Origin: an uncultured Thermotogae bacterium
GTDB taxonomy: Bacteria > Bipolaricaulota > Bipolaricaulia > UBA7950 > UBA9294
NCBI GenBank assembly: GCA_964552295.1
Contig: CAZKFV010000094.1
Location: 1 to 55,201, forward strand
Direction: 5' to 3'
Length of the DNA stretch: 55,201 bases
How positions within the stretch are numbered: the first letter of the stretch is position 1; each line of letters opens with the position of its first letter. The notes under the pieces are model-generated. The model saw only the letters and a program-made list of their open reading frames with translations, was not told where the DNA came from and did no database searches. The translations under genes and the position numbers were made by a program. Positions 3,401 through 46,650 of this stretch are shown piece by piece.

Positions 3401-3484
3401 CGTATCAGTTTTTTTATCTAGTATTTATTACAAAATCAGGTTTTACAATCTACGTAGGGCTTTGCTTTTTATGTGTTCACCAAG

Positions 3485-3905: not shown

Positions 3906-3932
3906 AAGCTGTTAAGCATGTAAAGGACTGCA

Positions 3933-4169
3933 TCGCGCAGGGACCTGTCTGCGCCTGCCTGTGCGTGTACGCACGCAGACAGGTCCGAAGGACAGGCAGG
4001 CGCATAGACGCAGGGGGCAGAGGAAAGCAGTAGGGTTTGGAAAGAAGATAGAAGGGGTTTTCCTTGAGCCCTCTCAGCGTCTCGAGCGAGCATAGCGAGC
4101 GGGCGGGAGAAAGGTTTGTGTCAGTTATAATTTGCAATCTTTGTTACGCACTGTAAACAGCGAAGAGCC
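3933..4169 (+). mobile_element. ~237-bp non-coding dispersed composite repeat, copy 1 (MITE/REPIN-like or structured RNA)
   Basis: Colinear high-identity second copy at 49249-49471 in the same orientation; internal 13-bp inverted repeats; no credible ORF. Confidence 0.75.
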
Positions 4170-4464
4170 TTTTTCTTAATCACCAATCACAGATAGCTTC
4201 CACGTCTCTCTTGTAATGTGATCTTTCTTGATAAGTGCCTGGAACTACCCAGTAAAACACAGGGAGGAACCCAATCAATACATGTTTTGGTCGTTTTCGC
4301 CTAGAATAATTTAGCATGCAAGAGCATCCATGATTGTTTACTTTATATTCTAGGGTTTGACTCGTTCATGTTCTATTCTGTCTTTAGGTAGAAAGGCCTA
4401 TATGCTGCCAACTTTACTGGCCGTGATGGACCTTTTTGGTTATCCTTCAACACATGCTAGGCAA

Positions 4465-4490
4465 CTGTGGGAAAGCGCCCGCTTTTTTTG
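4465..4490 (+). terminator. Weak terminator/attenuator-like hairpin immediately upstream of the EamA RBS
   Basis: GTGGG-aaagcg-CCCGC followed by T7, ending a few nt before AAGGAGG (4494-4500). Confidence 0.35.
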
Positions 4491-4506
4491 TTCAAGGAGG
4501 CACATC

Positions 4507-5376
4507 ATAGATGTCTCGATCTTATTAGCCGTATCTAGCGCTGCTTTATGGGGAGGAGGGCAAGTGATTGCCAAGCGCGGACTTGAGGATACGTCCCTTC
4601 CTCTGTTTGGAAGCGTGCGTTCCTTTTCTGCGCTGTTGTTTGTGGTTCCTTTTGGCCTTTTGACCATGGGCTTTCCAATTGGGTCTTTGTCCCTTCTTGG
4701 AGTAGCCGTGCTGGGTGGCGTGCTGGACTCGTTTGTGGGGACGCTTTTATACATGATCGCGCTTCGTACCAGCCCAGCGCATGAGGTGGTTCCTCTGTCC
4801 AACACAGCTCCTTTCTGGGGAGTTGTAGCGGCTGTAGTTCTGATCGGTGAGACGCCCCGAGTTGCCTCCTTTGTTGCAGCAGCTCTGGTGATAGTGGGTG
4901 CTTACTTCTTGTCCTCTCATAGAGGTCGAAGCGATGTTTCCAGCAGTCGGTTTGGTCCCTGGTTTGCACTTGCTGCGGGCGCGGTATGGGGGGTCGCTGA
5001 GATTGCGCCAACAAAGTACTGCCTGTCTAACGGAATGGCCCCAACAACGTATCAGCTTGTGGTAGTTCTAGCTTCTGGACTAGGGTGGGCTTGTTACCTT
5101 TTGCTTAAAGAAAAGGTGCGATCTGTCAGCTGGTCCCGTCAGGGAATTGGGATAGCTATACTTACAGGGTTCACTAACTTGTTTCTAGGGTGGATATTCT
5201 GGCTACTGGCGCTTGATCGCGCCCCAGCAAGCCTTATTTCTCCTATTAGGGGGCTAGTGGTTCTGTTTGGATTCATAGCCAGTGTCGTGTTTCTTAAAGA
5301 GCGTCCATCCAAGCGTGCTGGTCTGGGAGTATTGCTGATAGTTGCTGGCGTTACTTTGGTGTCGTTAGCCTGGTAG
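4507..5376 (+). CDS. EamA/DMT family transporter (probable non-canonical ATA start)
   Basis: Multiple hydrophobic helices in two EamA repeats (LLYMIALRTSPAHEVVPL; WLLALDRAPASLISPI, FLKERPS); perfect SD AAGGAGG 6 nt before ATA at 4507. The ORF-track upstream extension from 4357 looks non-coding. Confidence 0.8.
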   Translation: MDVSILLAVSSAALWGGGQVIAKRGLEDTSLPLFGSVRSFSALLFVVPFGLLTMGFPIGSLSLLGVAVLGGVLDSFVGTLLYMIALRTSPAHEVVPLSNTAPFWGVVAAVVLIGETPRVASFVAAALVIVGAYFLSSHRGRSDVSSSRFGPWFALAAGAVWGVAEIAPTKYCLSNGMAPTTYQLVVVLASGLGWACYLLLKEKVRSVSWSRQGIGIAILTGFTNLFLGWIFWLLALDRAPASLISPIRGLVVLFGFIASVVFLKERPSKRAGLGVLLIVAGVTLVSLAW

Positions 5377-5494
5377 GGTTAATTCTTGGAGCAGTTGGTG
5401 TCAAGCGGGCTAGGAGTGTTGTACAATGTATGGTTTGCTCCAATCAGCGTAGTTGCTTTGGCACAGATTTGTTATTCAAAAGGAGGAGAGGTAG

Positions 5495-5776
5495 ATGTTT
5501 AAGACAAATGAGTATTTTGAGGGGAAGGTAAAGTCGATTTCTTTTCAAGGTGAAGGGGGACCGGCAACGGTAGGGGTTATGGCTGTTGGCGAATACGAGT
5601 TTGGGACATCGACTAAGGAGATCATGACAGTTACCAGCGGGAAGCTGACTGTAAAGCTGCCAGGATCTGATGACTGGAATGATTACGAGCCCTATGACAC
5701 GTTTACCGTGGAGCCAAATCAGAAATTTCAGTTGAAGGTTACGCAGGAATCATCGTATATCTGCCTGTATCGCTAA
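5495..5776 (+). CDS. ppnP: Pyrimidine/purine nucleoside phosphorylase (DUF1255 cupin)
   Basis: [15 protein letters not shown]...[15 protein letters not shown]...EIMTVTSG...YICLY; SD GGAGG. Confidence 0.93.
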
Positions 5777-5905
5777 AGCAGGCTTTTGCTTACATGAAGA
5801 ATCACTACAAGCCTTCTAGTAATTTTGCTTGCAAATAAGGATGGCATATCATTAAGGCGCATAAGCCGCAAATCTCCTGTTTTGCAACTTTTGAGTTGAC
5901 AGCAA

Positions 5906-6781
5906 ATGTATGCCCAAATCGATAGGCGAACCCTGATTGCCTTAGCGTTTGTCCTGGCCTTTTGGTCATCTGCTTTTGCGGCCATTCGGGCTGGGCTTGT
6001 CGCCTATGATGCGGGCGAGTTGGCTTTGCTTCGTTTCTTGACAGCCTCAGCTGTACTAGCTGTTTATGCAATTGCAAGACGCATGCGCCTTCCCAAGCTG
6101 CGCGACGTCCCAGTCATTATCTTACTTGGGTTATTGGGGATAACCCTCTACCACCTCTTGCTGAACGTGGGAGAGGTGACGGTGACAGCTGGATCGGCCA
6201 GCATGCTCATAGCTTCAGCGCCTATCTTTACAGCGCTACTTGCGCACTTCATTCTTGGGGAAAGATTTCGCTTGATTGGATGGGCTGGACTAGCTATTAG
6301 CTTCTTTGGAGTGGTCCTCATTGCTTTTGGCGAAGGTGGTGGAGTAAGGCTTGAAACAGGTGCTCTTCTTATCTTATTGGCCGCTATCTCAACCAGTCTG
6401 TATAGCGTTTTGCAAAAGCGATTCATCAAGCGGTACACGCCACTGGAGTTTACAACCTATGTCATCTGGGCAGGAACACTGCCCATGTTGGTCTTCTTTC
6501 CAAGCCTCATAAGGTCGGTTCAAACAGCGCCCATCTCTGCCACTGCGGCGGTGTTGTATCTAGGGATATTCCCCGCTGCAATAGCTTACGTGCTTTGGGT
6601 GTATGCGCTATCGCGTTCGCCTGCTTCAAACGTAGCTAGCTTGCTTTACCTTAATCCAGTACTTGCTATTCTTATCGCCTGGCTGTGGCTTCGCGAGATA
6701 CCAACAATCTTATCCCTATTGGGCGGCGCTGTTGCGCTTGCGGGGGTTCTGGCAACTAACCTTCATGCCTCATCGAGATAG
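5906..6781 (+). CDS. EamA/DMT family transporter
   Basis: [70 protein letters not shown]. Confidence 0.92.
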
Positions 6782-6863
6782 TGGCCCAGAATGCCAGCTT
6801 TAATTAGTGACAAAAGTGGTTTCACCGGAGGTTGTGCTTGGAAACAAATCTTGAGAACCCAGC

Positions 6864-7559
6864 TTATACTGGCTTTTCGAGTTCTCCAGCCTCTTGCAGG
6901 TAATCAATGATCCCTTGCAGCAGCCCTTGGGCTATCTTGTCCTGGTAGGCTGAATCAAGTAGTTTTTCTCTTTCCTCCGGGGAGCTTAGGAAGCCAACTT
7001 CTGCCGATACGGCGGGAAGCTTGGTGTGCTGCAAATATAGGGACTGTGAGCGCACCCCGCGATCACGTGCCTGCGTAGAATCGATCAGCGAGTGCTGAAC
7101 CAATTCCGCTAACTTCCAGCTCGGGTCATCCTGGGCCCTGGTGTCATCGACGAGGGTTTCAACTCCGTGTACGCCTTCGTCACTGAAGGAGTTTACGTGT
7201 ACCGATAGGAAGATAACAGCTCCGGCCTTTTCTGCCAGTTCAAGCCGGAGTTCATTATCTACGGTGATATCGCTTGTTCGAGTAAGCACCGCCTCTATCT
7301 GGGGCTCCTGCTTAAGTAGCTCCACGAGCCGATTGACAATTTGCAGGTTGAGATCCTTCTCCAGGACTTCGCCGGCGACTCCACCAGGATCTCTTCCGCC
7401 GTGGCCTGGATCAAGGCCGATAGTGACAACGGGCCTCTCCGGCTCTGTAACGACCGGTGGTTCAGCAGGAGGTGCGCTGCGCTTAAATACGCCAGCCAAG
7501 GCGAGAGACCCGATGATCACGGCAATCAATACAAGAAGTGCTATTCCACGCCTAGTCAT
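6864..7559 (-). CDS. N-acetylmuramoyl-L-alanine amidase (Amidase_3), N-terminal anchor
   Basis: IGLDPGHGGRDPG, EKDLNL, LTRTSD, FLSVHVN, AEVGFLS zinc/catalytic motifs. Confidence 0.93.
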   Translation of the reverse strand: MTRRGIALLVLIAVIIGSLALAGVFKRSAPPAEPPVVTEPERPVVTIGLDPGHGGRDPGGVAGEVLEKDLNLQIVNRLVELLKQEPQIEAVLTRTSDITVDNELRLELAEKAGAVIFLSVHVNSFSDEGVHGVETLVDDTRAQDDPSWKLAELVQHSLIDSTQARDRGVRSQSLYLQHTKLPAVSAEVGFLSSPEEREKLLDSAYQDKIAQGLLQGIIDYLQEAGELEKPV

Positions 7560-7746: not shown

Positions 7747-9756
7747 GTGGTAAAAACGGCGATTTTACCGTGGAGCAACCTAAAGAAGGTGTTTAGTATC
7801 CTCAAGTCGTCCCTATCGCCAAACCAGATCGCGTTCTCGTTTGCCCTTGGGGTATTTGCTGGTGTTCCTCCAATGGGTCTTCACGTAATCATCCCAGCAA
7901 CCCTTGCTCTTCTTATCCGTGGAAGTTTTCGCGCATTCTTGCTGTCTATGGGTTTGTTCAAGCTAATCTCGATTGGTGTTGCTCCGTTTAGCTACGCTAT
8001 TGGCAGGTTTCTGTTGGATACTAGCCGTGGGCTTGATTCCATGTGGCGTGCGTTAACCCACCTGCCTGTGGCAGCGCCAATGGGCTATAACCGCTACCTG
8101 TTGTTGGGAGCGCTTAGTCTATCGCTTGCGATAGCTATTCCGGTGTTCTTCGCGGTTCGCCTTGTTGTTGTTAAATACCGAAAAAGCTTCACTAATTGGG
8201 TTTCTGGCTTGAGTGTTTCCGCTAATTTACGGAAAAGAAAATGGGCAAGCTTCTTACGTTGGCTTTTTGTAGGCGGAAAGCCGAAGTACGGTACTTACAA
8301 GGCCCCGCGCGGCGTCTTTAGATACATCAGAAAAGGCGGGCTGGTGATTGTTCCCGTTGCCTATTTAGTTTGCTACCTGCTGGCAGCGTTGATTGTTCCG
8401 TTCTTGTCCGGCACAATTGCCACCTCCGCCGCTTCCTACGTCATTGGAGGAGAAGTAGCTGTCAAAAAGAGCTCCTTCAGCCTATTTACAGGAAGGCTAA
8501 ACCTAACAGATCTTTCCATTCAGGACCCCGATAAACCTGAAGAAAACGTGCTAGAAATCCCATTGTTAACACTGGATGCGGGTATGCTGCCGCTGCTTGA
8601 AAAGAGGGTGGTGTTCAATGCTGTAGAAATCAGTGATGCGTACATGCATGTGGTAAGACAGGAGGACGGAACGCTCAATGTGGATGACTTCAGCACAGGC
8701 TGGAACGCAGAAGGCTATATGGAATGGGCAAGAAAACATGCAAATGATGTCGATTGGTGGAGTTTATTGCAGCGATTAATCGAGTATATGGGTCAGCCTC
8801 GCCCACGTGAGCCAAAGGCTGATTTGTCGCAATATGCGGGCGGGCGATCCTTTTCTCCCTATAGTACGGTGTTTGCTGTGGAACAGTTTACCCTGGGGAA
8901 GATTCATGTAAGCCTTGAGGATAGGCGCAATTTTGATCAAGGCTTTCCGCCTTTGACTCTCACGGATGTGGAGATTGAAAACCTAGCGTTTCCTGCAGAG
9001 CTTGCGAGCGATCCTGTCAAAATCAAGATAAACGGTAGAGTGGGACAGGCAGATCAGCAAAATGATGGATACCGACAGGCCTCTTTCCTGTTAACAGTGG
9101 AGTTGGATAATCGCCAAGAGCCGGCAGTGCATGAGTACAATCTTGAGGTGCAGGACATGAACCTGACGCAGATGTCTTGGCTGTACAATACCAGCCTTCC
9201 GTTAGTGATAATCTCTGGGAGAGCAACGCTGAGCGCTTCTGTGACAATCACTGGAGAGCAGGCGGAGGGAGGGGCCTCTCTTGCTTTGCAGGACTTAGTC
9301 ATTGCTCAGTCCCCCGGGGTGCAGTTGTTTGGGCTCTCACAGGAGCTTACGCAGAGGTCAATAGAGGGCATTAACCGGTATTCTCAGGATCTGCCGATCG
9401 TGATTGGTGTTGGAATCGACGGCAGCGCTGATGCGCCGCAGGTTCACTGGCAAGAGCCTTTGTTGGAGATTGCCCGTCAGGGGTTAATGCTGGAGGGAAA
9501 ACGTGAGCTTCAGGGGGCGATTGACCAGCTTGGTGCTAAAATAGGAACCTCTGCCCCAGGGCCTGACGTGACGCTTACCCCTGGTTACCAGCAGTTGCAA
9601 GAACAGGCTGAAGATTATGTGAGAAAGGCTATCGCTGGCGATGCTATCGCTAGCGATGCTATCGCTGGTGATGATGAGCAAAGCACTCCTGAGACGACAG
9701 AATTGTTCAAAAGCATACTTGATAAGCTGTTTCCCCGCGACAAGGAAGGTGAGTAA
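7747..9756 (+). CDS. Membrane protein: TIGR03546/DUF2062-like N-terminus fused to an AsmA/DUF748 (TIGR03545)-like domain
   Basis: SPNQIAFSFALGVFAG hydrophobic N-domain; later SFSLFTGRLNLTDLSIQDPDKPEENVLEI...TLDAGMLPLLEKRVVFNAVEI...VVRQEDGTLNV typical of AsmA-like beta-taco starts. Confidence 0.6.
   Translation: MVKTAILPWSNLKKVFSILKSSLSPNQIAFSFALGVFAGVPPMGLHVIIPATLALLIRGSFRAFLLSMGLFKLISIGVAPFSYAIGRFLLDTSRGLDSMWRALTHLPVAAPMGYNRYLLLGALSLSLAIAIPVFFAVRLVVVKYRKSFTNWVSGLSVSANLRKRKWASFLRWLFVGGKPKYGTYKAPRGVFRYIRKGGLVIVPVAYLVCYLLAALIVPFLSGTIATSAASYVIGGEVAVKKSSFSLFTGRLNLTDLSIQDPDKPEENVLEIPLLTLDAGMLPLLEKRVVFNAVEISDAYMHVVRQEDGTLNVDDFSTGWNAEGYMEWARKHANDVDWWSLLQRLIEYMGQPRPREPKADLSQYAGGRSFSPYSTVFAVEQFTLGKIHVSLEDRRNFDQGFPPLTLTDVEIENLAFPAELASDPVKIKINGRVGQADQQNDGYRQASFLLTVELDNRQEPAVHEYNLEVQDMNLTQMSWLYNTSLPLVIISGRATLSASVTITGEQAEGGASLALQDLVIAQSPGVQLFGLSQELTQRSIEGINRYSQDLPIVIGVGIDGSADAPQVHWQEPLLEIARQGLMLEGKRELQGAIDQLGAKIGTSAPGPDVTLTPGYQQLQEQAEDYVRKAIAGDAIASDAIAGDDEQSTPETTELFKSILDKLFPRDKEGE
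9628..9672 (+). repeat. In-frame 15-bp tandem repeat x3 (AIAGD/AIASD/AIAGD)
   Basis: gctatcgctggcgat gctatcgctagcgat gctatcgctggtgat. Confidence 0.9.
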
Positions 9757-36385: not shown

Positions 36386-37297
36386 ATGAAAACAAAGGAC
36401 CTTGTAGCGCTTTCGTATCTCACTGTGGAGGAGATGTATGAGATACTTGAAACAGCACGTAGTCTGAAACTCGAACACCGCGCTGGTGTAAAACACGAGA
36501 TGCTTTCAGGAAAGACACTAGCGATGATATTTGAGAAACCATCGCTAAGAACGCGGGTCTCATTTCAGAATGGCATGTACCAATTGGGCGGACACGCCAT
36601 ATACCTTGGGCCTGATGATATAAAGCTGGGAAAACGGGAGACCACGGAGGATATCGCGATGGTTTTATCCAGGTATGTTGATGGAATCATGGCCCGCGTT
36701 TTCGAGCATCAGACAATCGTTGACTTGGCTAAGTACGCCTCTGTGCCGGTTATCAACGCGCTGTGTGATCGCTATCACCCATGCCAGATCTTGGGAGACC
36801 TGCTTACTATTATGGAAAAAAGGCGGCAGCTTTCCGGTTTGACCCTCGCGTTTATTGGCGATGGCAACAATGTGGCGCACTCACTCATAAACGGTTGTGC
36901 CAAAGTTGGGATGGATTTTCGCATAGCTTGCCCTGAAGGTTATGAGCCTAATGAAGATATAGTACAGGAGGCGCGCTCCATTGGGGGCAAGGTCGAGATA
37001 ATACACGACCCTAACGAGGCAGCTAGAGGAGCTGATGTTTTGTACACGGATGTGTGGGCTAGTATGGGACAGGAAGTTGATTCCGAGCAGAAGAAGAACG
37101 CCTTTGTCGGATTCACCATAGATGAGAATTTGGTCAAGCTTGCCGATCGAGATGCGCTTGTCATGCACTGCCTGCCCGCTCACTACGATGAAGAAATCAC
37201 CTACGCAGCCTCGCGGAGTAAGGGAAGCGCAATCTTCGATCAGGCAGAAAACAGAATGCATGCGCAGAAGGCCGTGCTTGCGCTGGTTATGTCCTAA
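36386..37297 (+). CDS. argF: Ornithine carbamoyltransferase
   Basis: FEKPSLRTRVSF, HPCQ, GDGNNV, TDVWASMGQE, HCLPAH, QAENRMH. Confidence 0.96.
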   Translation: MKTKDLVALSYLTVEEMYEILETARSLKLEHRAGVKHEMLSGKTLAMIFEKPSLRTRVSFQNGMYQLGGHAIYLGPDDIKLGKRETTEDIAMVLSRYVDGIMARVFEHQTIVDLAKYASVPVINALCDRYHPCQILGDLLTIMEKRRQLSGLTLAFIGDGNNVAHSLINGCAKVGMDFRIACPEGYEPNEDIVQEARSIGGKVEIIHDPNEAARGADVLYTDVWASMGQEVDSEQKKNAFVGFTIDENLVKLADRDALVMHCLPAHYDEEITYAASRSKGSAIFDQAENRMHAQKAVLALVMS

Positions 37298-37300
37298 GAG

Positions 37301-38473
37301 GTGACCACGGTGAGCAATCAGCTTGTTCTTGGTTCCACAAACAAAGGTGACTGTACCGTTAGGGTAACAGAGTGTTTGGAACCCAGGATCAACATAGTGA
37401 CGGACAACGATCACCTGTTCGAAATGGGACTGCTTTCAGTGATAGAAGAATCGATGTCCGCATTAGGCACTGATACACTTTGCGTTGACCTGGAAGATCA
37501 TGGCGCTGTTGATTATGTGGTTATGGCAAGGGTTGAGGCGGCTGTGCGAGCAGTATCACCTCAGATAGGTGCGTGGCGGATAGGGACAAAGCAAGATAGC
37601 AGCACTAGGGACCGCCTGCGCAGAACTCGCCTTTACGCGCCTGGGAATAACCCTCACTTGCTGATGGGAGCAGAGCTATATGGTTCCGACTGCGTACTGC
37701 TGGACCTAGAAGATTCTGTTCCCCTATCAGAAAAGAATGTGGCGCGCATTCTGGTCAAGCATCTGCTGGCCGCAGTGGAGTTTCAAGAGGTGTGGGTGCG
37801 GATAGATCCACTTGAAACATGCGGAAGGGAAGATCTGGCAGAGGTGATGCTTGCTTCTCCACACGGTATATGTCTACCAAAGGCAGAGTCATGCAATGAT
37901 GTCTTTAAACTAGAAGAAGAAATGGCGGTTCTTGAAAGCAACCTAGAAATTGACCTCGGATCTACGTTCATAATGCCCATCATTGAGACTGGAAAAGGAG
38001 TGTTGAATGCTTTGGAGATAGCTTCCGCCAGCAAGCGGGTGGTAGTTATGGCCTTTGGTGCCGAGGACTACACGCGCGATGTTGGAGCAAATAGAACGCG
38101 GGAGGCGCTCTTGTATGCGCGCACGAAGATTGTAGCAGCGTGTGCCGCTTCGGGAATTCAGGCCTCAGATACGGTTTATGCGGACGTTGATGATGAAGAG
38201 GGCCTGATTGAGGAGACCAAGCATATTCGCGATCTTGGTTTTGTTGGTAAAGGGGCGATCAATCCTCGGCAGATAATGCCAATTCATGAGGTATTTCGCC
38301 CTACAGACGAACAGATTAAGTACGCTCGTGAAGTTATTGCTGTTGCCGACCAGGCAAAGGCTAAGGGGATTGGCGCAGTTGCACTACGTGGGAAGATGAT
38401 CGATTGGCCTGTTGTGGAAAGGGCCAAGAAACTAGTCGCGCATTTGGAACAGCTCGAGGAAAAATGGAGATAA
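37301..38473 (+). CDS. citE: Fusion of a degenerate citrate-lyase ACP (CitD-like) and a citryl-CoA lyase (CitE/HpcH family)
   Basis: N-domain EDHGAVDYVVMARVEAAV matches the CitD C-terminal motif; C-domain LYAPGNNP, LDLEDSV, IIETGKG, AFGAEDY, GKGAINPRQ. Confidence 0.85.
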   Translation: MTTVSNQLVLGSTNKGDCTVRVTECLEPRINIVTDNDHLFEMGLLSVIEESMSALGTDTLCVDLEDHGAVDYVVMARVEAAVRAVSPQIGAWRIGTKQDSSTRDRLRRTRLYAPGNNPHLLMGAELYGSDCVLLDLEDSVPLSEKNVARILVKHLLAAVEFQEVWVRIDPLETCGREDLAEVMLASPHGICLPKAESCNDVFKLEEEMAVLESNLEIDLGSTFIMPIIETGKGVLNALEIASASKRVVVMAFGAEDYTRDVGANRTREALLYARTKIVAACAASGIQASDTVYADVDDEEGLIEETKHIRDLGFVGKGAINPRQIMPIHEVFRPTDEQIKYAREVIAVADQAKAKGIGAVALRGKMIDWPVVERAKKLVAHLEQLEEKWR

Positions 38474-40017
38474 GAAACGCACTGGGTAGGCAGATCCCCG
38501 AGAAGGTTGGAAACAGGCTACTGCGTCCGTTTGAGGGGGTTTTCGCTACCGTGCCAAGTGGCAGAAAAGCCACTCGCCCTCAAAAAACTGTTAGAAAAGG
38601 CGAGAACAAGGTGCTTTCTTCTATCCAAAAGTCCATAGAAGCAACTGGTCTTGAAAGTGGCATGACGATCTCATTTCACCATTCATTCCGTAATGGTGAC
38701 TACGTGGTTAACATGGTGCTAGATGCCTGTGCTAAGATGGGAATAGAAGATTTACGTCTATTTGCAACAGCGCTTTTTCCGGTGCATGAACCCGTGATTG
38801 AGCATATCAAAAACGGCGTTGTAACACGAATTGAAGGCTCAATGAACGGGCCAATTGGGGCATTCGTATCTCAAGGGGGTCAGCTGAAGAGCCCGCCGGT
38901 GCTTCGTTCGCACGGTGGTCGTTGGAGGGCGGTGGAGGCTGGTGATGTTCATATCGATGTTGCGTTCATCGCTGCTTCCCAGGCGGATCCATACGGAAAT
39001 GCTAATGGCATATATGGCAAGACCCCTTGCGGACCGATCTCGTTTTCCATAGTGGATGCTCAATATGCGGAGAAAACCGTTGTAGTGACCAATGATCTAT
39101 CAAGATATCCAGCATACCCATTTGAGATTCAGCAGGGCTGGACAGATTACGTAGTAGTGGTAGATGAGATTGGAGATCCAAACAGCATTTCATCGGGAAC
39201 CCTTCAAATCACCCGTTCTCCGACTCGTTTAGGGATAGCTCGTCTGGCTGCAGCGGCAGTGAAGGCTTCTGGTTACATGAAGGATGGTTTCAGTTTTCAA
39301 GGAGGAGCTGGGGGTATATCACTAGCTGCTACAAAATTTGTGGGCGAGGAAATGGAACGGTCTGGAATTGTAGGCAGTTTTGCTATGGGTGGAGGAACAA
39401 GCTTGCTTGTAGATATTCTACATCGCGGATTGGTCCGGACTATCCTCGATGGGCAGGTATTCGATCTGGCAGCAGCAGAATCGATGCGAAATGATCCAAA
39501 CCATGTACTCATGGATCCTGGCCACTACGGCAACTATGACTCACGAGGTTGTGCTACGTACATGCTCGACGCGGCTTTCCTTGGGGCCACGGAAGTAGAT
39601 GTTGATTTCAATGTCAATGTAAACACCCACTCTGACGGCCAGCTTCTGCACGGAATTGGCGGTCACCAGGAGGTTGCTGTTGGAGCTAGCCTGACATTGA
39701 TTACCGTTCCTACCCTGAGAGGCAGGCTTCCTGTTATTGTAGATAAAGTGACTACAGTGACCACGCCAGGGGAGGTCATTGATGCTGTTGTAACCGAGCG
39801 TGGTATCGCAGTGAATCCCAGAAGGGGTGATCTGAAAGAGCGTTTCCTGGCTGCAGGTCTTCCGGTTCGTGAGCTTGTAAACATCAAGCGAGAGGCAGAT
39901 CGCTTGGTTCGCCCTCTTCGAAAGCCGATATTTGGCGATGAGGTAATAGCAGTGATTGAGTGGCAGGATGGAAGTGTTATTGATGTTGTGCGAAAAGTAG
40001 TAGGATGGCGCAGTTAG
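38464..40017 (+). CDS. citF: Citrate lyase alpha subunit / citrate CoA-transferase
   Basis: MTISFHHSFRNGD, RSHGGR, SFQGGAGG, LGATEVDVDFNVNV, GIGGHQ, VTTPGEVIDAVVTERGIAVNP. Confidence 0.93.
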   Translation: MEIRNALGRQIPEKVGNRLLRPFEGVFATVPSGRKATRPQKTVRKGENKVLSSIQKSIEATGLESGMTISFHHSFRNGDYVVNMVLDACAKMGIEDLRLFATALFPVHEPVIEHIKNGVVTRIEGSMNGPIGAFVSQGGQLKSPPVLRSHGGRWRAVEAGDVHIDVAFIAASQADPYGNANGIYGKTPCGPISFSIVDAQYAEKTVVVTNDLSRYPAYPFEIQQGWTDYVVVVDEIGDPNSISSGTLQITRSPTRLGIARLAAAAVKASGYMKDGFSFQGGAGGISLAATKFVGEEMERSGIVGSFAMGGGTSLLVDILHRGLVRTILDGQVFDLAAAESMRNDPNHVLMDPGHYGNYDSRGCATYMLDAAFLGATEVDVDFNVNVNTHSDGQLLHGIGGHQEVAVGASLTLITVPTLRGRLPVIVDKVTTVTTPGEVIDAVVTERGIAVNPRRGDLKERFLAAGLPVRELVNIKREADRLVRPLRKPIFGDEVIAVIEWQDGSVIDVVRKVVGWRS

Positions 40018-40156
40018 TTGATAATTCCAGTTACATCTCCTAGAATTACCTCTTTGGTCTTCTGACAAGGTGAACAAGAAGACAGCATAAAAGCGTATTC
40101 AGTCTGGCAAATATAGTGCCTCATATTGAGGTTTGGAATTACTGAAGGAGGGTGTT

Positions 40157-41440
40157 GTGAGACTGTACGAGCATGAGGCAAAGAGGATATTCCAGTCCAA
40201 GGGGATACCTATACCGGAGCAGTATGGAGTAATTCATTCCCCTGAGCAGCTGGCAGAAGTAAAGGTAGAATATCCCGTTATGCTCAAAGCTGTAGTTCTA
40301 ATTGGGGGCAGGGGCAAAGCTGGGGGAATCAAAAGGGCTTCAGATCCAGAAGAGGCCAAGGCTAAGGCAGAGGAGCTGTTCAACCTCAAGATTCGGGGTT
40401 ATCCTGTGGAAAGCGTGCTTCTTGAAAGGGCGGTGGAGGAAATTGGAGCTTGCTACGTTGGGATAACTATGGACCCAGCAAGCTATAATAATGTCGTGAT
40501 TCTGAGCGCATCTGGTGGTGTAGAGATAGAGACGGTAGCTAAGGAGAAGCCAGAGGCAATTCATAGGTTTGAAGTTGTCGGAAATGAGCTGGAGCTGTCC
40601 AAGGAAATATCAGATGATCTGGCAGGCAAGCTTTCAAAAGATCTGGGGGAGCAGGCTGGCAATAAGGAACAGCTTTCACAAATTCTATCTAAGCTCTACG
40701 CAGTTTATCAGGATGTCGATGCAAAGGTCTGTGAGATCAATCCACTTATACTTACACCCGATGGCCCCATAGCAGCTGATGCTAAATTGGTGCTAGATGA
40801 TAACGCCCTTTTCCGGCAGGTGAAATTGCTGGAGCAGTTGGGTATTGCTGGAAAGAGGCATGACGTAGCAGAGTTGACATCTAATGAGAAGCGCGCGCAG
40901 AAAGCAGGCTTTCCGTATGTTGACCTCCTTGCAGAGGATGCTGCAAAGGATCCTAAAAAGCTGTATGTTGGACTTGTTCCTGGTGGCGCTGGTTATGGAA
41001 TCTTCTCCATCGATGAAGTGGCCAATATTGGGGACCGCTTCTTTCAGGGAAAAGTTGTTCCGGTCAACTTCATGGACTCTGGAGGTGGCCCTTCTCAAGG
41101 AAAAGTTGCAGAGATGTTTCATCTGCTCATGGATTATGAAAAGGTTGACATGATTATCACATCACGATTTGGTGGCGTATCAAGTTGTGATACTTTCATC
41201 CGTGGTCTTATCCAAGCCTTGAGAGAACGACATGAGGCTGGAGAAAGGGTAATTCCGGTATATGGGAGAATGGTAGGCACGGATCTTCCCAGCGCCAGGG
41301 CATATCTGGAAAAGGCAAAAGGGAGCCCTGCGGATCCAGCATTGGAGAAGATGACTATCATCGTTGGAAACCAGAAGATCATGGCTGATGTCATTAAAAA
41401 AGGGATTAGTAAGGCATTTGAAAGTAAGGGGTGGAACTGA
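40157..41440 (+). CDS. ATP-grasp acyl-CoA synthetase beta subunit (SucC/citryl-CoA synthetase large-like)
   Basis: LYEHEAK, KAVVLIGGRGKAGGI, SGGVEIE, EINPL, AADAKLVLDDNALFRQ, NFMDSGGG, FGGVSSCD; GTG start after SD AAGGAGG. Confidence 0.85.
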   Translation: MRLYEHEAKRIFQSKGIPIPEQYGVIHSPEQLAEVKVEYPVMLKAVVLIGGRGKAGGIKRASDPEEAKAKAEELFNLKIRGYPVESVLLERAVEEIGACYVGITMDPASYNNVVILSASGGVEIETVAKEKPEAIHRFEVVGNELELSKEISDDLAGKLSKDLGEQAGNKEQLSQILSKLYAVYQDVDAKVCEINPLILTPDGPIAADAKLVLDDNALFRQVKLLEQLGIAGKRHDVAELTSNEKRAQKAGFPYVDLLAEDAAKDPKKLYVGLVPGGAGYGIFSIDEVANIGDRFFQGKVVPVNFMDSGGGPSQGKVAEMFHLLMDYEKVDMIITSRFGGVSSCDTFIRGLIQALRERHEAGERVIPVYGRMVGTDLPSARAYLEKAKGSPADPALEKMTIIVGNQKIMADVIKKGISKAFESKGWN

Positions 41441-43575
41441 TGGAGCGAATATCAGCAGATCATGGAATGCTCTACTATCTTATCAAGCAATCTCATCCAG
41501 AGATAGCGGGGCATATCGAAGAAACCAATGAGATAGATACCATCGTTGTCGGTCTTGGTCGACAGGGAGCGCGGCATGCTGGATTGATGCAAGAGTTTGG
41601 AACTAAGATTACAGCTGGTATAGCTCCAGGCAGAGGTGGAACTCGTGTTCATGAAACCATTCCTGTATATGAAACCGTTAAGGATTGCCTCAAGGATCAC
41701 CCTTACATTGCTGCAGCAAGCATCTGGAAGCACTATTCAACAGCTAGGGATGCTACCATCGAGGTCATAGAAGCTGGTATTCCTGTCGTTGTTCTCATAA
41801 GTGAAGGGATACCCATTCGCGATGTTAGAGATATCTTGGTAGCCGCGAGGATGCATGGAGCGCTTCTGATTGGTGGGAATTCGCCTGGCGTAATATTTCC
41901 CCCCGAAAGGGTAAAAGTAGGCATGCTGCCTGATATTTTCTATCCAGAGGAAACGGGTTCCGGGCAGCTAGGCCCAAATGGAGTCACCATTATATCGCGT
42001 AGCGGTGCTATTCTTTACCATATGTCTGATGCGTTGGCTAGTGTAGGAATAGCTCAAAACGCCGTTATTGGAGTAGGTGGTGACGGCGCAATAGGATCTA
42101 CGTTCTCGGACCTGGTTCCCTTAGCCATGAAATATCCGCATACTGATCTGGTAGTGATTGCTGGAGAGATCGGTGGAATACAGGAGGAAAGGCTAGCCAA
42201 AGACATTGCGGATCACCCTGAGAAATATCCCAAGCCGATTATTGCCGAGATATCTGGGGCTCATGCTCCAGCAGGAAAGACCATGGGGCATGCTGGAGCG
42301 ATAGTCGCTCCAGGACAGTCTTATGGTACATTCGAGTCCAAAAGGTCTGCTTTGGAAAGTGCTGGTGTAACCGTGGTGAATTCGCAGTATGACCTAATCG
42401 TAGAAGTGGAAAAGAGCCTTGGCAAAAAGTATTTTGATACTGATAGGTATTATGAAAAGATGAGGACGATCTGGGAGGCTCCACCCAAGGCTCCAAGTTG
42501 GGCGACCCTGATAACCAAGGTGGAGCCGAACAATCTTATGCTTTCTGGCTATCCCCTTCAGCAGATAGTGGAACGAAAAACACTTCTCGAAACCGCTTGC
42601 TTGTTGGTCAAAGGGGAATTTCCGTCTCCAAAAGCTTTGGAAGAGCAAAGGAAGGTCGCGCTTCAAGCAGTGGCAGAATCCGGGCCAATTGTGAAGCTAG
42701 ATCAGGGTGAGGATGTATCCAAAACGCTGGCTAAAACCCTCCTGCTGGATAAGGCACTGGCCGCGTTCACCACTGTGGGAACTGACGGTGAAGTGCTGAA
42801 AACTAGCTATGCCCTGGGCCGAATAGCAAACTACTTGGGCACTATCTTGGGCACATCTTCTGCCTTGAAAGGATTGCCCGATGATATTAGCTTTGCTGAC
42901 GTAATCGGAAGGATTATTACCGGCAAAGCAGAATGTGGGAAGGATGTCTCCAAGATGCTGGAGAAAATGATTATAGCTTCCGTTGACCACGGGGTAACTC
43001 CTCCTTCTGCTCAAGCCACCTTAATTGCGGCTTCTACCAGGACGCCCTATGAGGTGGCTGTAGCTCATGGAGTGGGCGTAATCACCGACGTCCATGGTGG
43101 TGCTGGGGCAAAGGCAGCCGAGTTTTTCTCGCAATGTGTGTCTAGGGCGACTGCTAAAAACATAGATCTTGAGGGCGCCACCAGAGAAGTTATGAGCGAA
43201 TACATAAGGGATGGGCGTAGGATAGAAGGTATGGGACACAGGGTTCATACCAAGGATCCCCGACGTGACGTCCTGTGGAGTCTGGCAGATGAAGCAGGGA
43301 TTGCTGGAGACAACGTAGAGGTTTCAAAAATAGTTGCCGGCGTATTTAAGCAAGTGCGAGGGATGGATCTTCCCATAAATGTGGACGGCGTGATTGGTGC
43401 GATCGTCGCAGATATGAAACTTGATCCTTGGCTAGCCAAGGTGCTTTTCATTTGGGGCCGTGTCGCAGGTCTTTCTGCTCATTACTTCGAGGAGGTAGCT
43501 TCTCAACCTCAAATGAGAAGAATAAACTTCGGTGAAGTTGTCTATAAAGGAAAACCTTACCGAGACGTGCCATAA
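41440..43575 (+). CDS. Acyl-CoA synthetase alpha subunit (SucD-like) fused to a citryl-CoA lyase (citrate-synthase-fold) domain; AclA-like architecture
   Basis: GIAPGRGG, ISEGIP, IGGNSPG, SRSGAI, GEIGG, phospho-His motif GKTMGHAGA; C-terminal WATLITKVEPN, VDHGVTPPS, VHGGAG, GMGHRVHTKDPR, PINVDG. Confidence 0.88.
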   Translation: MERISADHGMLYYLIKQSHPEIAGHIEETNEIDTIVVGLGRQGARHAGLMQEFGTKITAGIAPGRGGTRVHETIPVYETVKDCLKDHPYIAAASIWKHYSTARDATIEVIEAGIPVVVLISEGIPIRDVRDILVAARMHGALLIGGNSPGVIFPPERVKVGMLPDIFYPEETGSGQLGPNGVTIISRSGAILYHMSDALASVGIAQNAVIGVGGDGAIGSTFSDLVPLAMKYPHTDLVVIAGEIGGIQEERLAKDIADHPEKYPKPIIAEISGAHAPAGKTMGHAGAIVAPGQSYGTFESKRSALESAGVTVVNSQYDLIVEVEKSLGKKYFDTDRYYEKMRTIWEAPPKAPSWATLITKVEPNNLMLSGYPLQQIVERKTLLETACLLVKGEFPSPKALEEQRKVALQAVAESGPIVKLDQGEDVSKTLAKTLLLDKALAAFTTVGTDGEVLKTSYALGRIANYLGTILGTSSALKGLPDDISFADVIGRIITGKAECGKDVSKMLEKMIIASVDHGVTPPSAQATLIAASTRTPYEVAVAHGVGVITDVHGGAGAKAAEFFSQCVSRATAKNIDLEGATREVMSEYIRDGRRIEGMGHRVHTKDPRRDVLWSLADEAGIAGDNVEVSKIVAGVFKQVRGMDLPINVDGVIGAIVADMKLDPWLAKVLFIWGRVAGLSAHYFEEVASQPQMRRINFGEVVYKGKPYRDVP

Positions 43576-43665
43576 TCTACTGAAGAGAAGAATATCAAAG
43601 TGTAGGCATAGAATGAGCAGCAAGTCTAATTTAAGCATATTGGACGCCGTAAGGAGGATAAAAGC

Positions 43666-44202
43666 ATGACAATGAGAGAAGATATCCTGCGGATTCTGCC
43701 TGAGATTGAGCTAATTGAAGACGAATCGTTACGCCAAATGGTGACAAAAACCTGGGAAGACGCGCTGGTTCGTGGCAAATGGGAGGCCTCTGATATCCAG
43801 AGTATGCCGTTTACCTTGGCCAAGAAAGTGGATATCAGCTTCGCCCAACATGTGCGAAGCGTAACCAAAATATCCCTTGCTGCGGTTGAGATATTCGATG
43901 AAATTTATAAGGGCAAGTTAACACTAAATCGCGACTTAGTTCTTGCTGGAGCACTGCTGCACGATGTGGGAAAGCTCCTGGAGATGGAGAAAGTTGACGG
44001 CGTATTTCGCAAGAGCCATGAGGGGAAACTTGTACGACATCCCTTCTCTGGGGTTGCACTTGCAGATGCAAACGGCGCTCCTCCGGAAGTGCAGCATATA
44101 ATCGGGACTCACTCCAAGGAGGGAGATCCGTACAAGCGCACGCCGGAGTCAGTTATCGTGCACTTGGCTGACTTTATGAACTTCGATACAGTGGAGGGTT
44201 GA
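43666..44202 (+). CDS. HD-domain (HDIG) metal-dependent phosphohydrolase
   Basis: QHVRSV, GALLHDVGKL, RHPFSG, IIGTHS, IVHLADF. Confidence 0.85.
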   Translation: MTMREDILRILPEIELIEDESLRQMVTKTWEDALVRGKWEASDIQSMPFTLAKKVDISFAQHVRSVTKISLAAVEIFDEIYKGKLTLNRDLVLAGALLHDVGKLLEMEKVDGVFRKSHEGKLVRHPFSGVALADANGAPPEVQHIIGTHSKEGDPYKRTPESVIVHLADFMNFDTVEG

Positions 44203-45479
44203 CAGAGATGGGAATGACGTTTGCCCAAAAGATCCTTTCCCAGAAAGCCGGCCTTGATCATGTTGAGGTAGGCCAGATAGTAGAGATCACGCCTGATTAC
44301 TGTATGTCTCACGACAACACAGCGGCTATTAGCAAGACCTTTGCTAGCATTGGAGTCGATCGCGTGAAGGACCCGGAGAAGTTTGTAATCATTCTCGATC
44401 ACACGGTTCCTGCGTCGACGGAGAAGTATGCTCTTGGACACAAGGAGATCCGCGAGTTTGTGGCGGCTCAGGGGATAGAAAACTTCTATGACGGCGGCGT
44501 TGGGATATGTCATCAAGTGTTGCCTGAGAGGGGGTTCGCTCTGCCTGGTACGCTGATCCTTGGTTCGGATTCCCATACCACAACTTACGGGGCATTCGGT
44601 GCTTTTTCTGCTGGTATTGGCCGTTCGGAAATGGCTGTTCTATATGCTACATCGAAGATATGGCTGAAGACCCCGGAGACTTTCAAGATAGTGATTAACG
44701 GTCAGTTGCGTGAACCTGTTACCTCAAAGGACCTCATGCTGAAAATAATCGGGGATATCGGTGCTGACGGAGCTCTCTATCGTTCCATCGAGTTTTCAGG
44801 TGAGGCAATTTCACAGATGAGCTTGGCATCGCGTATGGTGCTCTCCAACATGGCAATAGAGTGTGGAGCCAAGAATGGATACATAGCTCCTGACGAGAAT
44901 ACTTTCCGCTTTCTCGAGGGACGGGCGGTAAGGGACTATTACCCGTTATATCCTGATAGCGATGCTCAATATGAGAAAGAGCTTGAACTAGATGCCGCGC
45001 AGCTTGGTCCACAGGTAGCAAAACCACACACTGTGGATAATGTCTCGCCAGTGGAGCAGGTAGAAGGCACCAAGATTGATCAGGTCCTGCTGGGTACTTG
45101 TACCAACGGACGACTGGAAGATCTACGATTGGCAGCGAGGATTCTTTCTGGAAAGAAAATTGCCAAAGGTGTGCGAATGCTGATCCTTCCGGCATCGCAG
45201 GAGGTTCTTCTCGATGCTCTATCGGAGGGGTTGATCAGCATTTTTGTACGTGCGGGAGCTATTATGTTGAACCCGGGCTGCGGCCCTTGTTTAGGGGCGC
45301 ACCAAGGGGTGTTAGCTCCAGGCGAGGTTTGCTTGTCCACTGCTAACCGCAACTTCAAGGGTAGGATGGGGTCATCAGAGGCAGAGATCTACCTCGCATC
45401 CCCAGCCACAGTCGCTGCGTCGGCCCTTACCGGAGCAATCACTGATCCTCGCGATGTATTCCAAGGAGGTGTCAGATGA
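44199..45479 (+). CDS. leuC: 3-isopropylmalate dehydratase/homoaconitase-family large subunit (short LeuC/HacA type)
   Basis: MSHDNT, GICHQV, GSDSHTTTYGAFG, GTCTNGR and GCGPC [4Fe-4S] cysteines, STANRNFKGRMG. Confidence 0.88.
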   Translation: MTEMGMTFAQKILSQKAGLDHVEVGQIVEITPDYCMSHDNTAAISKTFASIGVDRVKDPEKFVIILDHTVPASTEKYALGHKEIREFVAAQGIENFYDGGVGICHQVLPERGFALPGTLILGSDSHTTTYGAFGAFSAGIGRSEMAVLYATSKIWLKTPETFKIVINGQLREPVTSKDLMLKIIGDIGADGALYRSIEFSGEAISQMSLASRMVLSNMAIECGAKNGYIAPDENTFRFLEGRAVRDYYPLYPDSDAQYEKELELDAAQLGPQVAKPHTVDNVSPVEQVEGTKIDQVLLGTCTNGRLEDLRLAARILSGKKIAKGVRMLILPASQEVLLDALSEGLISIFVRAGAIMLNPGCGPCLGAHQGVLAPGEVCLSTANRNFKGRMGSSEAEIYLASPATVAASALTGAITDPRDVFQGGVR

Positions 45480-45967
45480 GCAAGGGCAACGTGTGGAAAT
45501 ATGGAGACGATATCAACACAGACGTCATATTTCCCGGCAAGTACACGTATCAACCGTTAACCCCAGGAGAAATGGCGACCCACGCGATGGAGGATCTTGA
45601 CCCCGATTTTGCAACTAACGTCAAGCAGGGGGATGTTGTAGTAGCTGGGGCTAACTTTGGCTGCGGCTCGTCACGCGAGCAAGCAGCCACATGCCTGAAA
45701 GCTGCAGGAGTGGCGGCGGTAATTGCTAAGTCCTTCTCGCGCATCTTCTTTAGAAATGCCATCAATAGTGGTCTTCCCGTAATTGAGTTGAAGCGTGGAA
45801 TCGAGAGTATAAAAAAGCAAGACACAGTTGAGATTGACTTTGAAAATGGGATTGTGATACACGAAGGTAATGAATATCACTTTCCCGCCCTGCCAAAGGA
45901 AGTGCTGGCAATTCTCGAAGATGGCGGTCTTATTGCGCATGTAAGAAAGGAGTTAGGAAAAGTATAA
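45476..45967 (+). CDS. leuD: 3-isopropylmalate dehydratase/homoaconitase-family small subunit
   Basis: DINTDVIFPGKY, NFGCGSSREQA, AKSFSRIFFRNAINSGLP, ILEDGGLI. Confidence 0.88.
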   Translation: MSKGNVWKYGDDINTDVIFPGKYTYQPLTPGEMATHAMEDLDPDFATNVKQGDVVVAGANFGCGSSREQAATCLKAAGVAAVIAKSFSRIFFRNAINSGLPVIELKRGIESIKKQDTVEIDFENGIVIHEGNEYHFPALPKEVLAILEDGGLIAHVRKELGKV

Positions 45968-46287: not shown

Positions 46288-46514
46288 GAGTCAGATATGA
46301 TGAAGAAGCTGATGCGTTCTACATCAAGCTTCGGTAACGGGAGCATCACGAAAGCGACTAGGTCAAAGATGGGTTCATCTTTGACTATGATGTGAATGGG
46401 AATACCACTGGCATTAAAATCTTGAACGCTTCGGCTCATTTTGCCCCTGCTGAGCTCTCCACCGTTAATTTCGAGATTACTCGACCACTGATGAGAGCGG
46501 GAGAGAAGAGCTAA
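46284..46514 (+). pseudogene. DUF2283-family antitoxin pseudogene with two in-frame stops
   Basis: MRVRYDEEADAFYIKLR*REHHESD*VKDGFIFDYDVNGNTTGIKILNAS...; YD..AD..YI.L and D.D..G...GI.IL.AS are DUF2283 hallmarks. Confidence 0.8.
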
Positions 46515-46521
46515 GGCACAG

Positions 46522-46650
46522 TTTGAGAACAGTGTAGTGACCTGCGAACGTAACGAATATCACTTTCCCTCCCTGCCCGTGGAAGTCCTCGCCATCCTCC
46601 AAGACGGCGGCCTGATCCCGCTTGTAAGGAAGCAGTTAAAAGGCAGATGA
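46522..46650 (+). pseudogene. Orphan diverged duplicate of the leuD 3' end (43 codons)
   Basis: FENSVVTCERNEYHFPSLPVEVLAILQDGGLIPLVRKQLKGR* versus leuD 45839-45967; 28/42 aa identical, same length. Confidence 0.85.

Follow-up and report, generated by a model that had tools for sequence, protein, structure and literature searches.

What is the role of an operon that joins two different CoA-dependent lyase systems to an HD-domain protein and a LeuCD-type hydro-lyase? This question is raised by positions 36386-45967 of contig CAZKFV010000094.1 (assembly GCA_964552295.1), which comes from an uncultured bacterium of the Bipolaricaulota; the window is the whole stretch analyzed, 55,201 nt in length. 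An earlier interpretation made from the DNA letters alone (here called the sequence-only reading) had assigned these genes to an undescribed pathway for hydroxy-di/tricarboxylates, and the literature we searched holds no description of such a module. Our comparisons indicate that the operon is apparently one lineage's form of a widespread module of anaerobic bacteria and archaea that is linked by the HD protein. Whether this module works at the citrate/citryl-CoA node, with two routes leading to one thioester, we regard as an even call.

Operon layout and the HD-linked module

The eight genes lie on the plus strand in the order argF, citD*-citE, citF, ccsB, ccsA-CCL, HD, leuC, and leuD, with seven junctions of 3, -10, 139, -10, 90, -4, and -4 nt. 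They are co-directional and mostly overlapping or nearly abutting apart from the gaps of 139 and 90 nt, as the sequence-only reading had described, and with no leuA or leuB nearby the LeuCD-type pair stands, again as described, outside any leu context. The order is identical in a second species of the genus (loci L001/L038; L and G numbers are our handles for related loci and genomes), with amino acid identities of 68-87%, and the six-gene core argF-citDE-citF-HD-leuC-leuD, which is conserved across the family of the bacterium, is found again in >20 related genomes. The homologous loci are labeled Candidatus Bipolaricaulota or Acetothermia. The eight-gene arrangement is not due to chance. The sequence-only reading had named a lack of co-conservation in other genomes as evidence against itself; the genes are in fact conserved together elsewhere.

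Two gene starts were assigned by reading the sequence. The citF open reading frame (ORF) is open from TTG 38404, and its likely start is ATG 38464, which follows GAGGAA and gives 517 residues; ccsB likely starts at GTG 40157 after GGAGG and has 427 residues. Both lengths match those of homologues. A sequence scan found no terminator-like site in the 139-nt citF-ccsB gap or in the 90-nt gap between ccsA-CCL and HD. The best σ70-like match of the region, TTGATA-17-TAGAAT (10/12), is at 40018-40046, and matches of this kind are no more numerous here than in shuffled sequences, i.e. at chance level.

The HD gene (43666-44202, 178 residues, PF01966) encodes a member of a distinct family of ~183 clusters at 50% identity (E < 1e-30), which is matched in 23 of the 41 genomes of the same class that were searched. 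We compared 47 loci of this family, from different species, with 33 loci carrying only distant HD domains, over 8 kb around HD. A module gene of any kind (citrate-lyase, citryl-CoA synthetase (CCS) or citryl-CoA lyase (CCL), aconitase-family, or Icd-like) was found at 36 of the 47 family loci and at 1 of the 33 control loci. Within the same distance, the family loci had a lyase system in 24 cases, an aconitase-family gene in 24, and an Icd-like gene in 21, and 10 of the 11 family loci with no module gene are on contigs of <10 kb. The HD protein is the constant part of the module, tied to thioester-lyase genes across many phyla.

Around HD, the lyase system is swapped between lineages. The CitD/E/F form is found in Synergistales, Veillonellaceae, and Cloacimonadales; the ccsB/ccsA-CCL fusion form in Thermoplasmatota, Chloroflexota, and Heimdallarchaeia; CitF with CCL in Thermoplasmata and other Asgard loci; and unfused CCS large and small subunits with a stand-alone CCL in Anaerolineae and Aminicenantes. 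Stand-alone CCLs in sister clusters pass the citryl-CoA-lyase cut-offs. The isomerase part usually consists of two enzymes, namely a "type A" LeuCD that shares 55-65% identity with the one studied here and a second enzyme that is another LeuCD, a fused protein of ~600 residues, or a PrpD-like protein. The complete related genome G035 has citDE-citF-HD-leuC-leuD-dehydrogenase-PrpD-like on one strand, and the PrpD-like gene is also inside the operon at L033. At L033 the LeuD-type subunit linked to ccsBA (6644-7156) carries an aconitase-like LRSN motif, not the PGKYTY loop of the studied protein, so the isomerase part is not uniform across lineages.

In the studied genome the module dehydrogenase and the PrpD-like protein are encoded together on contig C72, unlinked to the operon, and throughout the family the dehydrogenase occurs together with HD. 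The pathway that the sequence-only reading saw within the operon is incomplete there without these two genes, which belong to it and share the operon in G035. A canonical aconitase was not seen in 14 of 24 module-bearing genomes. Among the Heimdallarchaeia, L074 and L075, with ccsBA beside the module isomerases, have no canonical aconitase, whereas L007 and L009, which lack these genes, have an aconitase elsewhere; this suggests that the module substitutes for aconitase there.

The sequence-only reading was correct that two lyase systems are joined in one operon, but the joining is a recent event at genus level and not an ancient design. In relatives L028-L031 the order is argF-citDE-citF-HD-leuC-leuD, with citF and HD overlapping, and relatives lacking ccsBA have these two genes abutting or overlapping. 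CitF is matched in 26 of the 41 class genomes and adjoins HD wherever both coordinates are listed. The ccsA-CCL fusion, which always accompanies ccsB, is found in 2 of the 41, the studied genome and one congener. Because relatives without the pair keep citF and HD adjoining and the fusion is confined to these two genomes, we conclude that ccsBA entered the operon at genus level, at the junction of citF and HD, and the 139-nt gap (40018-40156) marks the 5' edge of the insert. The operon is thus a composite, formed by recent insertion of ccsBA into an older citDE-citF-HD-leuCD operon. Base composition and GC content at third codon positions show no trace of insertion across ccsBA; it is the phyletic pattern that reveals it. 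Beyond the genus, the nearest relatives of the pair are in other Acetothermia (69-71% identity, order HD-ccsB-ccsA), followed by Asgard archaea, Thermoplasmatota, and Chloroflexota (60-68%). The HD proteins of those Acetothermia loci are only 47-49% identical to the one studied; the resident HD gene was retained at insertion.

The HD protein has the six metal ligands of a dimetal-type HD signature (His-62, His-99-Asp-100, His-125, His-149, and Asp-169), and these residues and Lys-103 are invariant in 12 close and mid-distance relatives and are kept in ≥90% of 93 sequences. Ligand set and fold place it in the superfamily of HD-domain metal-dependent phosphohydrolases. An AF2 model built from the 93-sequence alignment had a predicted local distance difference test score of 97.8, compared with only 38 for single-sequence AlphaFold. 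The nearest fold is the YhaM HD domain (template-modeling (TM) score 0.67), and cyclic-dinucleotide phosphodiesterases are also among the nearest. Judged by its fold the protein is probably a phosphoesterase, and our best guess is that it would act on a CoA-type nucleotide cofactor or as a regulatory phosphoesterase.

Transporter genes are also found beside HD. HD directly follows tripartite tricarboxylate-transporter genes in two Deltaproteobacteria-type loci, L047 (TctC/TctA, 2919-7072) and L071 (TctA-TctB, 106-2824), from a Syntrophobacterales and a Desulfovibrionaceae metagenome-assembled genome, and no lyase genes are seen on these two short contigs. It also adjoins CitT-like genes. At a Pelosinus locus HD adjoins RraA-like aldolase and oxidoreductase genes. 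A search for domain fusions in the HD family yielded one GNAT-HD fusion only (P0354, 333 residues). A GNAT gene is also present in the studied contig at 46772-47764, 804 nt downstream of leuD; together with P0354 it may hint at a link to acetyl-CoA.

Enzymes of the operon and of the rest of the genome

The citD*-citE fusion (37301-38473; Pfam ACP, HpcH_HpaI, and C-C_Bond_Lyase) encodes an ACP domain at residues ~7-86 and a CitE-type acyl-CoA lyase at residues ~105-380. The CitE part, which has an HpcH_HpaI domain, scores 278 bits with the citE model TIGR01588 (cut-off 443) and 169 bits with the RipC/Ccl model (cut-off 375). CitF (38464-40017), of the citrate lyase α type, exceeds its equivalog cut-off (TIGR01584, 557.5 > 501.45 bits) and is 44% identical to E. 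coli CitF. In the CitD domain, NKGD aligns with ESGD of E. coli CitD, so that lysine replaces the serine. This serine we take to be Ser-14, to which the prosthetic group is attached. The position is occupied by Lys or Arg in L028, L031, L038, L056, L066, L072, and L080, and Ser is kept in the CitD copies of Synergistales. CitC, CitX, and CitG (PF08218, PF03802, and PF01874) were each detected in 0 of the 41 class genomes, with control genomes positive, and tblastn with the E. coli proteins gave no match in the studied genome. As the serine is lost and the three maturation proteins are absent, the CoA-transferase and the lyase would have to use free CoA thioesters, and we infer that CitF and CitE work without a carrier arm. 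A classical holo-citrate lyase is ruled out on the same grounds.

The second lyase system comprises ccsB (40157-41440; ATP-grasp_2 and Ligase_CoA), a citryl-CoA synthetase-like ATP-grasp subunit of the succinyl-CoA synthetase (SCS) β type, and ccsA-CCL (41431-43575; CoA_binding, Ligase_CoA, and Citrate_synt), a fusion of SucD with a citrate-synthase-like domain. The sequence-only reading had one system depending on ATP and the other on CoA transfer by CitF, each with its own lyase, and the domain content argues in its favor. CcsB scores 47.5 bits with Citrate_synth_N (PF24948; cut-off 83), has no Citrate_bind domain (PF16114), and reaches 241 bits with SucC models (cut-off 370). In CcsA-CCL the SCS-α domain spans residues ~35-327 and scores 208 bits as SCS α, compared with 114 for AclA and 106 for Hydrogenobacter CcsB. 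The C-terminal domain (residues ~358-714) is a full-length citrate-synthase-like domain covering positions 9-352 of the 357-position Citrate_synt profile. It matches the CCL structure 6HXP over residues 480-714 (108 bits) and scores 196 bits with NCBIfam CCL models (cut-off 245). All eight active-site residues of E. coli citrate synthase, as listed in PMC13147460, are kept: His-229, His-264, His-305, Arg-314, Asp-362, Phe-383, Arg-387, and Arg-407. The genome's own AclA has Phe at position 264. The intact site points to chemistry of oxaloacetate with acetyl-CoA, or with propionyl-CoA, as the probable function of the fused domain. That the pair is a bona fide ATP-citrate lyase (ACL) is ruled out, as the real AclAB is encoded on contig C80.

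The LeuC-type large subunit (44199-45479) passes subfamily models (PRK00402, 581 bits) and fails all equivalog cut-offs (LEU2, 509 < 611; HacA, 522 < 550; aconitase NF005558, 333 < 612). The LeuD-type small subunit (45476-45967) scores 198 bits with LEUD_arch and likewise fails its equivalogs (leud, 186 < 246; HacB2, 181 < 230). Both subunits belong to type A. Among solved structures LeuC is nearest to the Methanocaldococcus (M.) jannaschii isopropylmalate (IPM)/citramalate isomerase (442 bits) and homoaconitase (414 bits). The specificity loop of LeuD reads PGKYTYQP, compared with YLVY in MJ1277, YLRT in MJ1271, and LRSN in aconitase; arguments of this kind from specificity residues, here and below, draw on few characterized enzymes. 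A diverged repeat of the last ~48 leuD codons (58% amino acid identity) is located at 46495-46638, ~530 nt downstream of leuD, and a similar additional leuD fragment is present in the congener at L001 15377-15676.

The module dehydrogenases share the motif SSPIVxLRQ ("SPIV") and an SKPK...KG insertion, which occurs in no solved structure compared. The corresponding motif is IRSLNVxLR in isocitrate dehydrogenases (ICDHs) and GAIRYLRR in Thermus homoisocitrate dehydrogenase (HICDH). The latter is the nearest solved structure, and the module dehydrogenases score best with AksF HICDH models, below cut-off. Downstream of the dehydrogenase and PrpD-like genes on C72, after a MutT/Nudix-like ORF, are two small ORFs (8684-9200, minus strand), each for a CxxC...CxxC zinc ribbon with an acidic tail. 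Their LysW matches are weak and sub-cut-off (25 and 19 bits), and their C-terminal ends are presumably unlike that of LysW.

The assembly totals 1.70 Mb, spread over 129 contigs (C1-C129), and is 88.7% complete, and several of the absences given below were determined by tblastn with E. coli queries alone in this incomplete metagenome-assembled genome. Contig C28 encodes ilvB-ilvN-ilvC-leuA-leuC-leuD-ilvE-cimA-leuB-ilvD. Eight of these genes are above cut-off, with the true LeuC at 691 bits; leuD (242 against 245.85 bits) and ilvD, which extends up to the end of the contig, narrowly miss it. Since this ilv-leu operon has its own LeuCD, the LeuCD of the studied operon, whose LeuC is 48% identical to the true LeuC, is an extra paralogue, and a leucine role for it is ruled out. 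The sequence-only reading had allowed that the pair might merely be an isopropylmalate enzyme with leuAB elsewhere, and this proved not to be so. Contig C80 encodes aconitase (NF005558, 789 > 612 bits), NADP-ICDH (TIGR00183, 625 > 567), AclB, and AclA. The AclB is bona fide (Citrate_bind, 285 bits; Citrate_synth_N, 259 > 83), and the cluster also holds an IclR-like ORF identified by reading its sequence. A cluster on C121 has SucCD, 2-oxoacid:ferredoxin oxidoreductase, an SdhA-like gene, and malic enzyme; in all, glutamate dehydrogenase (GDH), phosphoenolpyruvate carboxykinase (PEPCK), malic enzyme, and 2-oxoacid:ferredoxin oxidoreductases are present. A gltA-type citrate synthase was not found in the genome.

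The first gene of the operon is argF (36386-37297), 3 nt ahead of citDE, which encodes an ornithine carbamoyltransferase (NF001986, 427.7 bits, cut-off 306; TIGR00658, 402.5 bits, cut-off 280.85). It is also immediately 5' of citDE in relatives L028-L031, L038, and L039. In L028 and L031, which lack ccsBA, an oligopeptide-type ATP-binding cassette transporter (SBP_bac_5, two permeases, and an ATPase) is divergent from argF; in the studied genome SurA-like, MazG, and HAD genes take this position. On C25 (28557-32704) two tandem carbamoyltransferase paralogues, 31-33% identical to ArgF, lie beside an ArgE/M20-like gene. As regards arginine and lysine biosynthesis, argH is present, argB was not found by tblastn, argC gave a weak 25%-identity match only, dapA, dapB, and lysA were not found by tblastn with the E. 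coli proteins across C1-C129, and LysX was not found in the genome. This pattern may reflect an inability to synthesize lysine and ornithine or the use of unrecognized routes, but the genes could also lie in the 11% of the genome that is missing.

Candidate substrates of the module

Several observations speak for the citrate/citryl-CoA node: the equivalog score of CitF, the intact citrate-synthase site, the stand-alone CCLs above cut-off in sister clusters, the tricarboxylate transporters near HD, and the module genomes in which no canonical aconitase was seen, with the Heimdallarchaeia pattern among them. To our knowledge, citryl-CoA is the only substrate common to the CitE and citrate synthase (CS)/CCL lyase families, CitF, and CCS. 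We judge the assignment to stand about midway between acceptance and rejection. In the proposed scheme CitF would transfer CoA from free acetyl-CoA to citrate and the CitE domain would cleave citryl-CoA to acetyl-CoA and oxaloacetate, for a net conversion of citrate to acetate and oxaloacetate. CcsB and CcsA-CCL would make the same thioester from citrate with ATP and CoA and cleave it on the fused domain. This reaction should be near equilibrium (for that of ACL, the standard free energy is about -8 kJ/mol; PMC13147460), so it could also run in reverse with a gain of ATP. Citrate and 2-oxoglutarate would then be connected through the type-A LeuCD together with two proteins encoded apart from the operon on C72, the PrpD-like dehydratase and the "SPIV" dehydrogenase. 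Our view of direction is weaker: in the CitDEF form, flux would run mainly towards cleavage, with 2-oxoglutarate from amino acids (argF, GDH, and PEPCK being present) reductively carboxylated, isomerized to citrate, and split. The main cycle would rely on the ACL, aconitase, and ICDH encoded in their own cluster.

Several observations weigh against this assignment. AclAB, aconitase, and NADP-ICDH coexist with the module in the genome and in most of the family, which would make a citrate role redundant, doubly so for the ATP-dependent ccsBA pair. The LeuD loop has neither an arginine nor the LRSN motif of aconitase, and LeuC and LeuD both score closer to IPM/citramalate isomerase and homoaconitase than to aconitase. 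The module dehydrogenase has Ile at the position of ICDH Asn-115, in addition to its private insertion. Two dehydratase-type enzymes are typical of methylcitrate/homocitrate chemistry, not of citrate. Finally, the citrate-synthase residues cannot separate acetyl-CoA from propionyl-CoA as the partner.

A more specific form of the citrate assignment, which we hold to be doubtful, would make HD a required component of carrier-free citrate cleavage in many anaerobic bacteria and archaea, including the Asgard group, for example by processing a CoA-type nucleotide such as a dephospho-CoA form, such that CitF/CitE or CCS/CCL can run on the free cofactor. The module would then provide a third route of glutamate/arginine fermentation (from 2-oxoglutarate through isocitrate and citrate to acetate and oxaloacetate) in place of the methylaspartate pathway of the sister family. 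The sequence-only reading had asked for methylaspartate-pathway genes to be sought; the marker of that pathway, glutamate mutase, is absent from the genome and from its family, which speaks against the pathway in this organism. Glutamate mutase occurs only in a sister family of the same order (G025-G028), which lacks HD, CitF, ACL, and the module dehydrogenase. The pattern, which concerns a single lineage, is a weak hint of a catabolic role and may reflect alternative routes of glutamate fermentation.

The main alternative, which we consider less likely, is that the same architecture acts on a citrate analogue. This could be homocitrate, on a path linking 2-oxoglutarate and 2-oxoadipate in either direction, or a different hydroxy-acid with an alkyl or carboxyalkyl substituent. 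As in the two-enzyme homocitrate/methylcitrate routes, removal of water from the tertiary alcohol would fall to the PrpD-like enzyme, leaving to the type-A LeuCD only the hydration of the alkene and to the "SPIV" dehydrogenase the oxidation of the product. The genome already has a full citrate set on C80 and an IPM/citramalate set on C28 (LeuA, CimA, LeuCD, and LeuB); with both complete, the operon and the C72 genes form a third parallel set, and this coexistence with canonical sets is family-wide. A LeuD loop unlike that of aconitase, a dehydrogenase motif unlike that of ICDH and nearest in solved structure to Thermus HICDH, the preference for AksF models, albeit below cut-off, and the PrpD-like gene in the operon of G035 and L033 all fit an analogue. 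However, the residues of citrate synthase that contact oxaloacetate and acetyl-CoA are all kept, CitF is above the cut-off for citrate lyase α, and citrate-type transporters are among the neighbors of HD. Nor do the homo-acid enzymes match in detail: the LeuD loop differs from YLRT of methanogen homoaconitase, and the module dehydrogenase has Val at the position of Arg-85 of Thermus HICDH, which we take to be a specificity residue. We know of no CS-fold enzyme with 2-oxoglutarate or pyruvate as substrate.

Two particular analogue routes can be set aside. On chemical grounds 2-methylisocitrate, a tertiary alcohol, is not oxidizable by a dehydrogenase, and methylcitrate is therefore ruled out as substrate by the conservation of the module dehydrogenase. 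An aminoadipate lysine pathway as the sink for homocitrate is not supported, since LysX is absent and the LysW-like ribbons are sub-threshold, leaving no such use for 2-oxoadipate, even though dapA, dapB, and lysA were not found.

We consider it unlikely that the chemistry is that of citrate but the purpose biosynthetic, with the module serving as the cell's citrate synthase and aconitase for 2-oxoglutarate, glutamate, and arginine, and CcsBA-CCL conserving thioester energy as ATP. The sequence-only reading had raised such a substitution in its simple form; no gltA was found, as it would predict, but with ACL, aconitase, and NADP-ICDH clustered on C80 the module is not a simple substitute. This cluster, moreover, has an IclR-type regulator. 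The near-equilibrium CCS/CCL and ACL reactions would permit synthesis, and many module genomes have no canonical aconitase; most relatives, however, have the CitF/CitE form only, and we estimate from standard energies that acetate and oxaloacetate would be converted to citrate without driving force at physiological concentrations. Although argF heads the operon, it does not belong to a full glutamate-to-arginine route, given that argB was not found and argC is weak.

It is very improbable that the genes are functionally unrelated neighbors and HD a housekeeping nucleotide hydrolase, because the generic phosphoesterase fold, nearest to RNase YhaM, and the 11 of 47 loci with no nearby module gene (10 of them on the contigs of <10 kb) are set against coding regions overlapping by 4-10 nt and an association that recurs across phyla although the gene order varies and one lyase system is exchanged for another, at a control frequency of 1/33.

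Surveys have noted homologues of ACL or CCS in the Asgard archaea and in further uncultured groups (bioRxiv 10.1101/2022.10.25.513756; PMC9802188). The literature we searched contains no description of the HD partner, the CitDE fusion lacking Ser, the fusion of an SCS-derived synthetase with a full-length citrate synthase, or the linked LeuCD-dehydrogenase-PrpD set. The source databases give these proteins generic names only, and the module is concealed by labels like "succinyl-CoA synthetase alpha", "citrate/2-methylcitrate synthase", and "HD domain-containing protein". Among the key steps of central carbon metabolism is the cleavage or formation of citrate, which metagenome surveys use as the marker of the reductive tricarboxylic acid cycle. 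Such surveys would misread a citrate lyase lacking the covalent cofactor arm and maturation genes, an SCS-derived synthetase-lyase fusion that apparently arose apart from ACL and retains 60-70% identity between bacteria and Asgard or Thermoplasmatota archaea, and a small HD protein that faithfully tracks these systems across phyla. If citrate is the substrate, the module would give a textbook step a new enzymatic form and would be a candidate route of amino-acid fermentation in uncultured anaerobes that are abundant; with an analogue as substrate, it would be a new 2-oxoacid pathway.

Comparison with known systems

The closest HD fold is that of YhaM/Cbf1, a 3'-5' exoribonuclease (PDB 9H3F; TM score 0.67, profile E-value 1e-7). 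Unlike YhaM, the HD protein stands alone at 178 residues, and the match is limited to the HD part (~residues 154-284) of the 321-residue YhaM chain. The gene context is wholly unlike that of YhaM, and the fold match implies no nuclease role.

The LeuCD-type enzyme resembles its nearest solved relatives, the IPM/citramalate isomerase MJ0499/MJ1277 and the homoaconitase MJ1003/MJ1271, in being a two-subunit iron-sulfur hydro-lyase. It differs from them in its YTYQP loop, its failure at equivalog cut-offs, and a citrate-lyase context rather than a leu or aks one.

Similarity to the bacterial citrate lyase of Klebsiella, E. coli, and lactic acid bacteria (CitDEF with CitC/X/G, EC 4.1.3.6) is seen in a CitF α subunit above equivalog cut-off, a CitE-type β domain, a CitD-like γ domain, and the order D-E-F. 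The predicted partial reactions are also the same (EC 2.8.3.10 and EC 4.1.3.34). The differences are the fusion of γ to β, the Lys in place of the prosthetic-group Ser, the absence of CitC/CitX/CitG from the class, the HD gene after citF, and the linked LeuCD-type, Icd-like, and PrpD-like genes.

CcsB and CcsA-CCL share with AclAB of the Chlorobium type, of which the genome has its own copy on C80, the order of an ATP-grasp gene followed by a CoA-binding and CS-like gene, and the same predicted net reaction. In contrast to AclAB, CcsB lacks a Citrate_bind domain and stays below the cut-off of the ACL ATP-grasp model, and the CS-like domain keeps His-264. The two are separate lineages, with 26% identity by tblastn in the CCL region only. 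The nearest parallel in logic is provided by CcsAB and Ccl of Hydrogenobacter thermophilus (PDB 6HXQ and 6HXP), in which a two-subunit SCS-family ligase is likewise combined with a CS-fold lyase and ATP-dependent formation of citryl-CoA precedes its cleavage; here the same sequence of steps is predicted, with citrate as the putative activated acid. In the studied operon, however, the small subunit is fused to the lyase and is nearer to SCS α than to CcsB, and the lyase domain, with ~357 residues, has the full length of a citrate-synthase-like domain, compared with ~260 in Hydrogenobacter Ccl.

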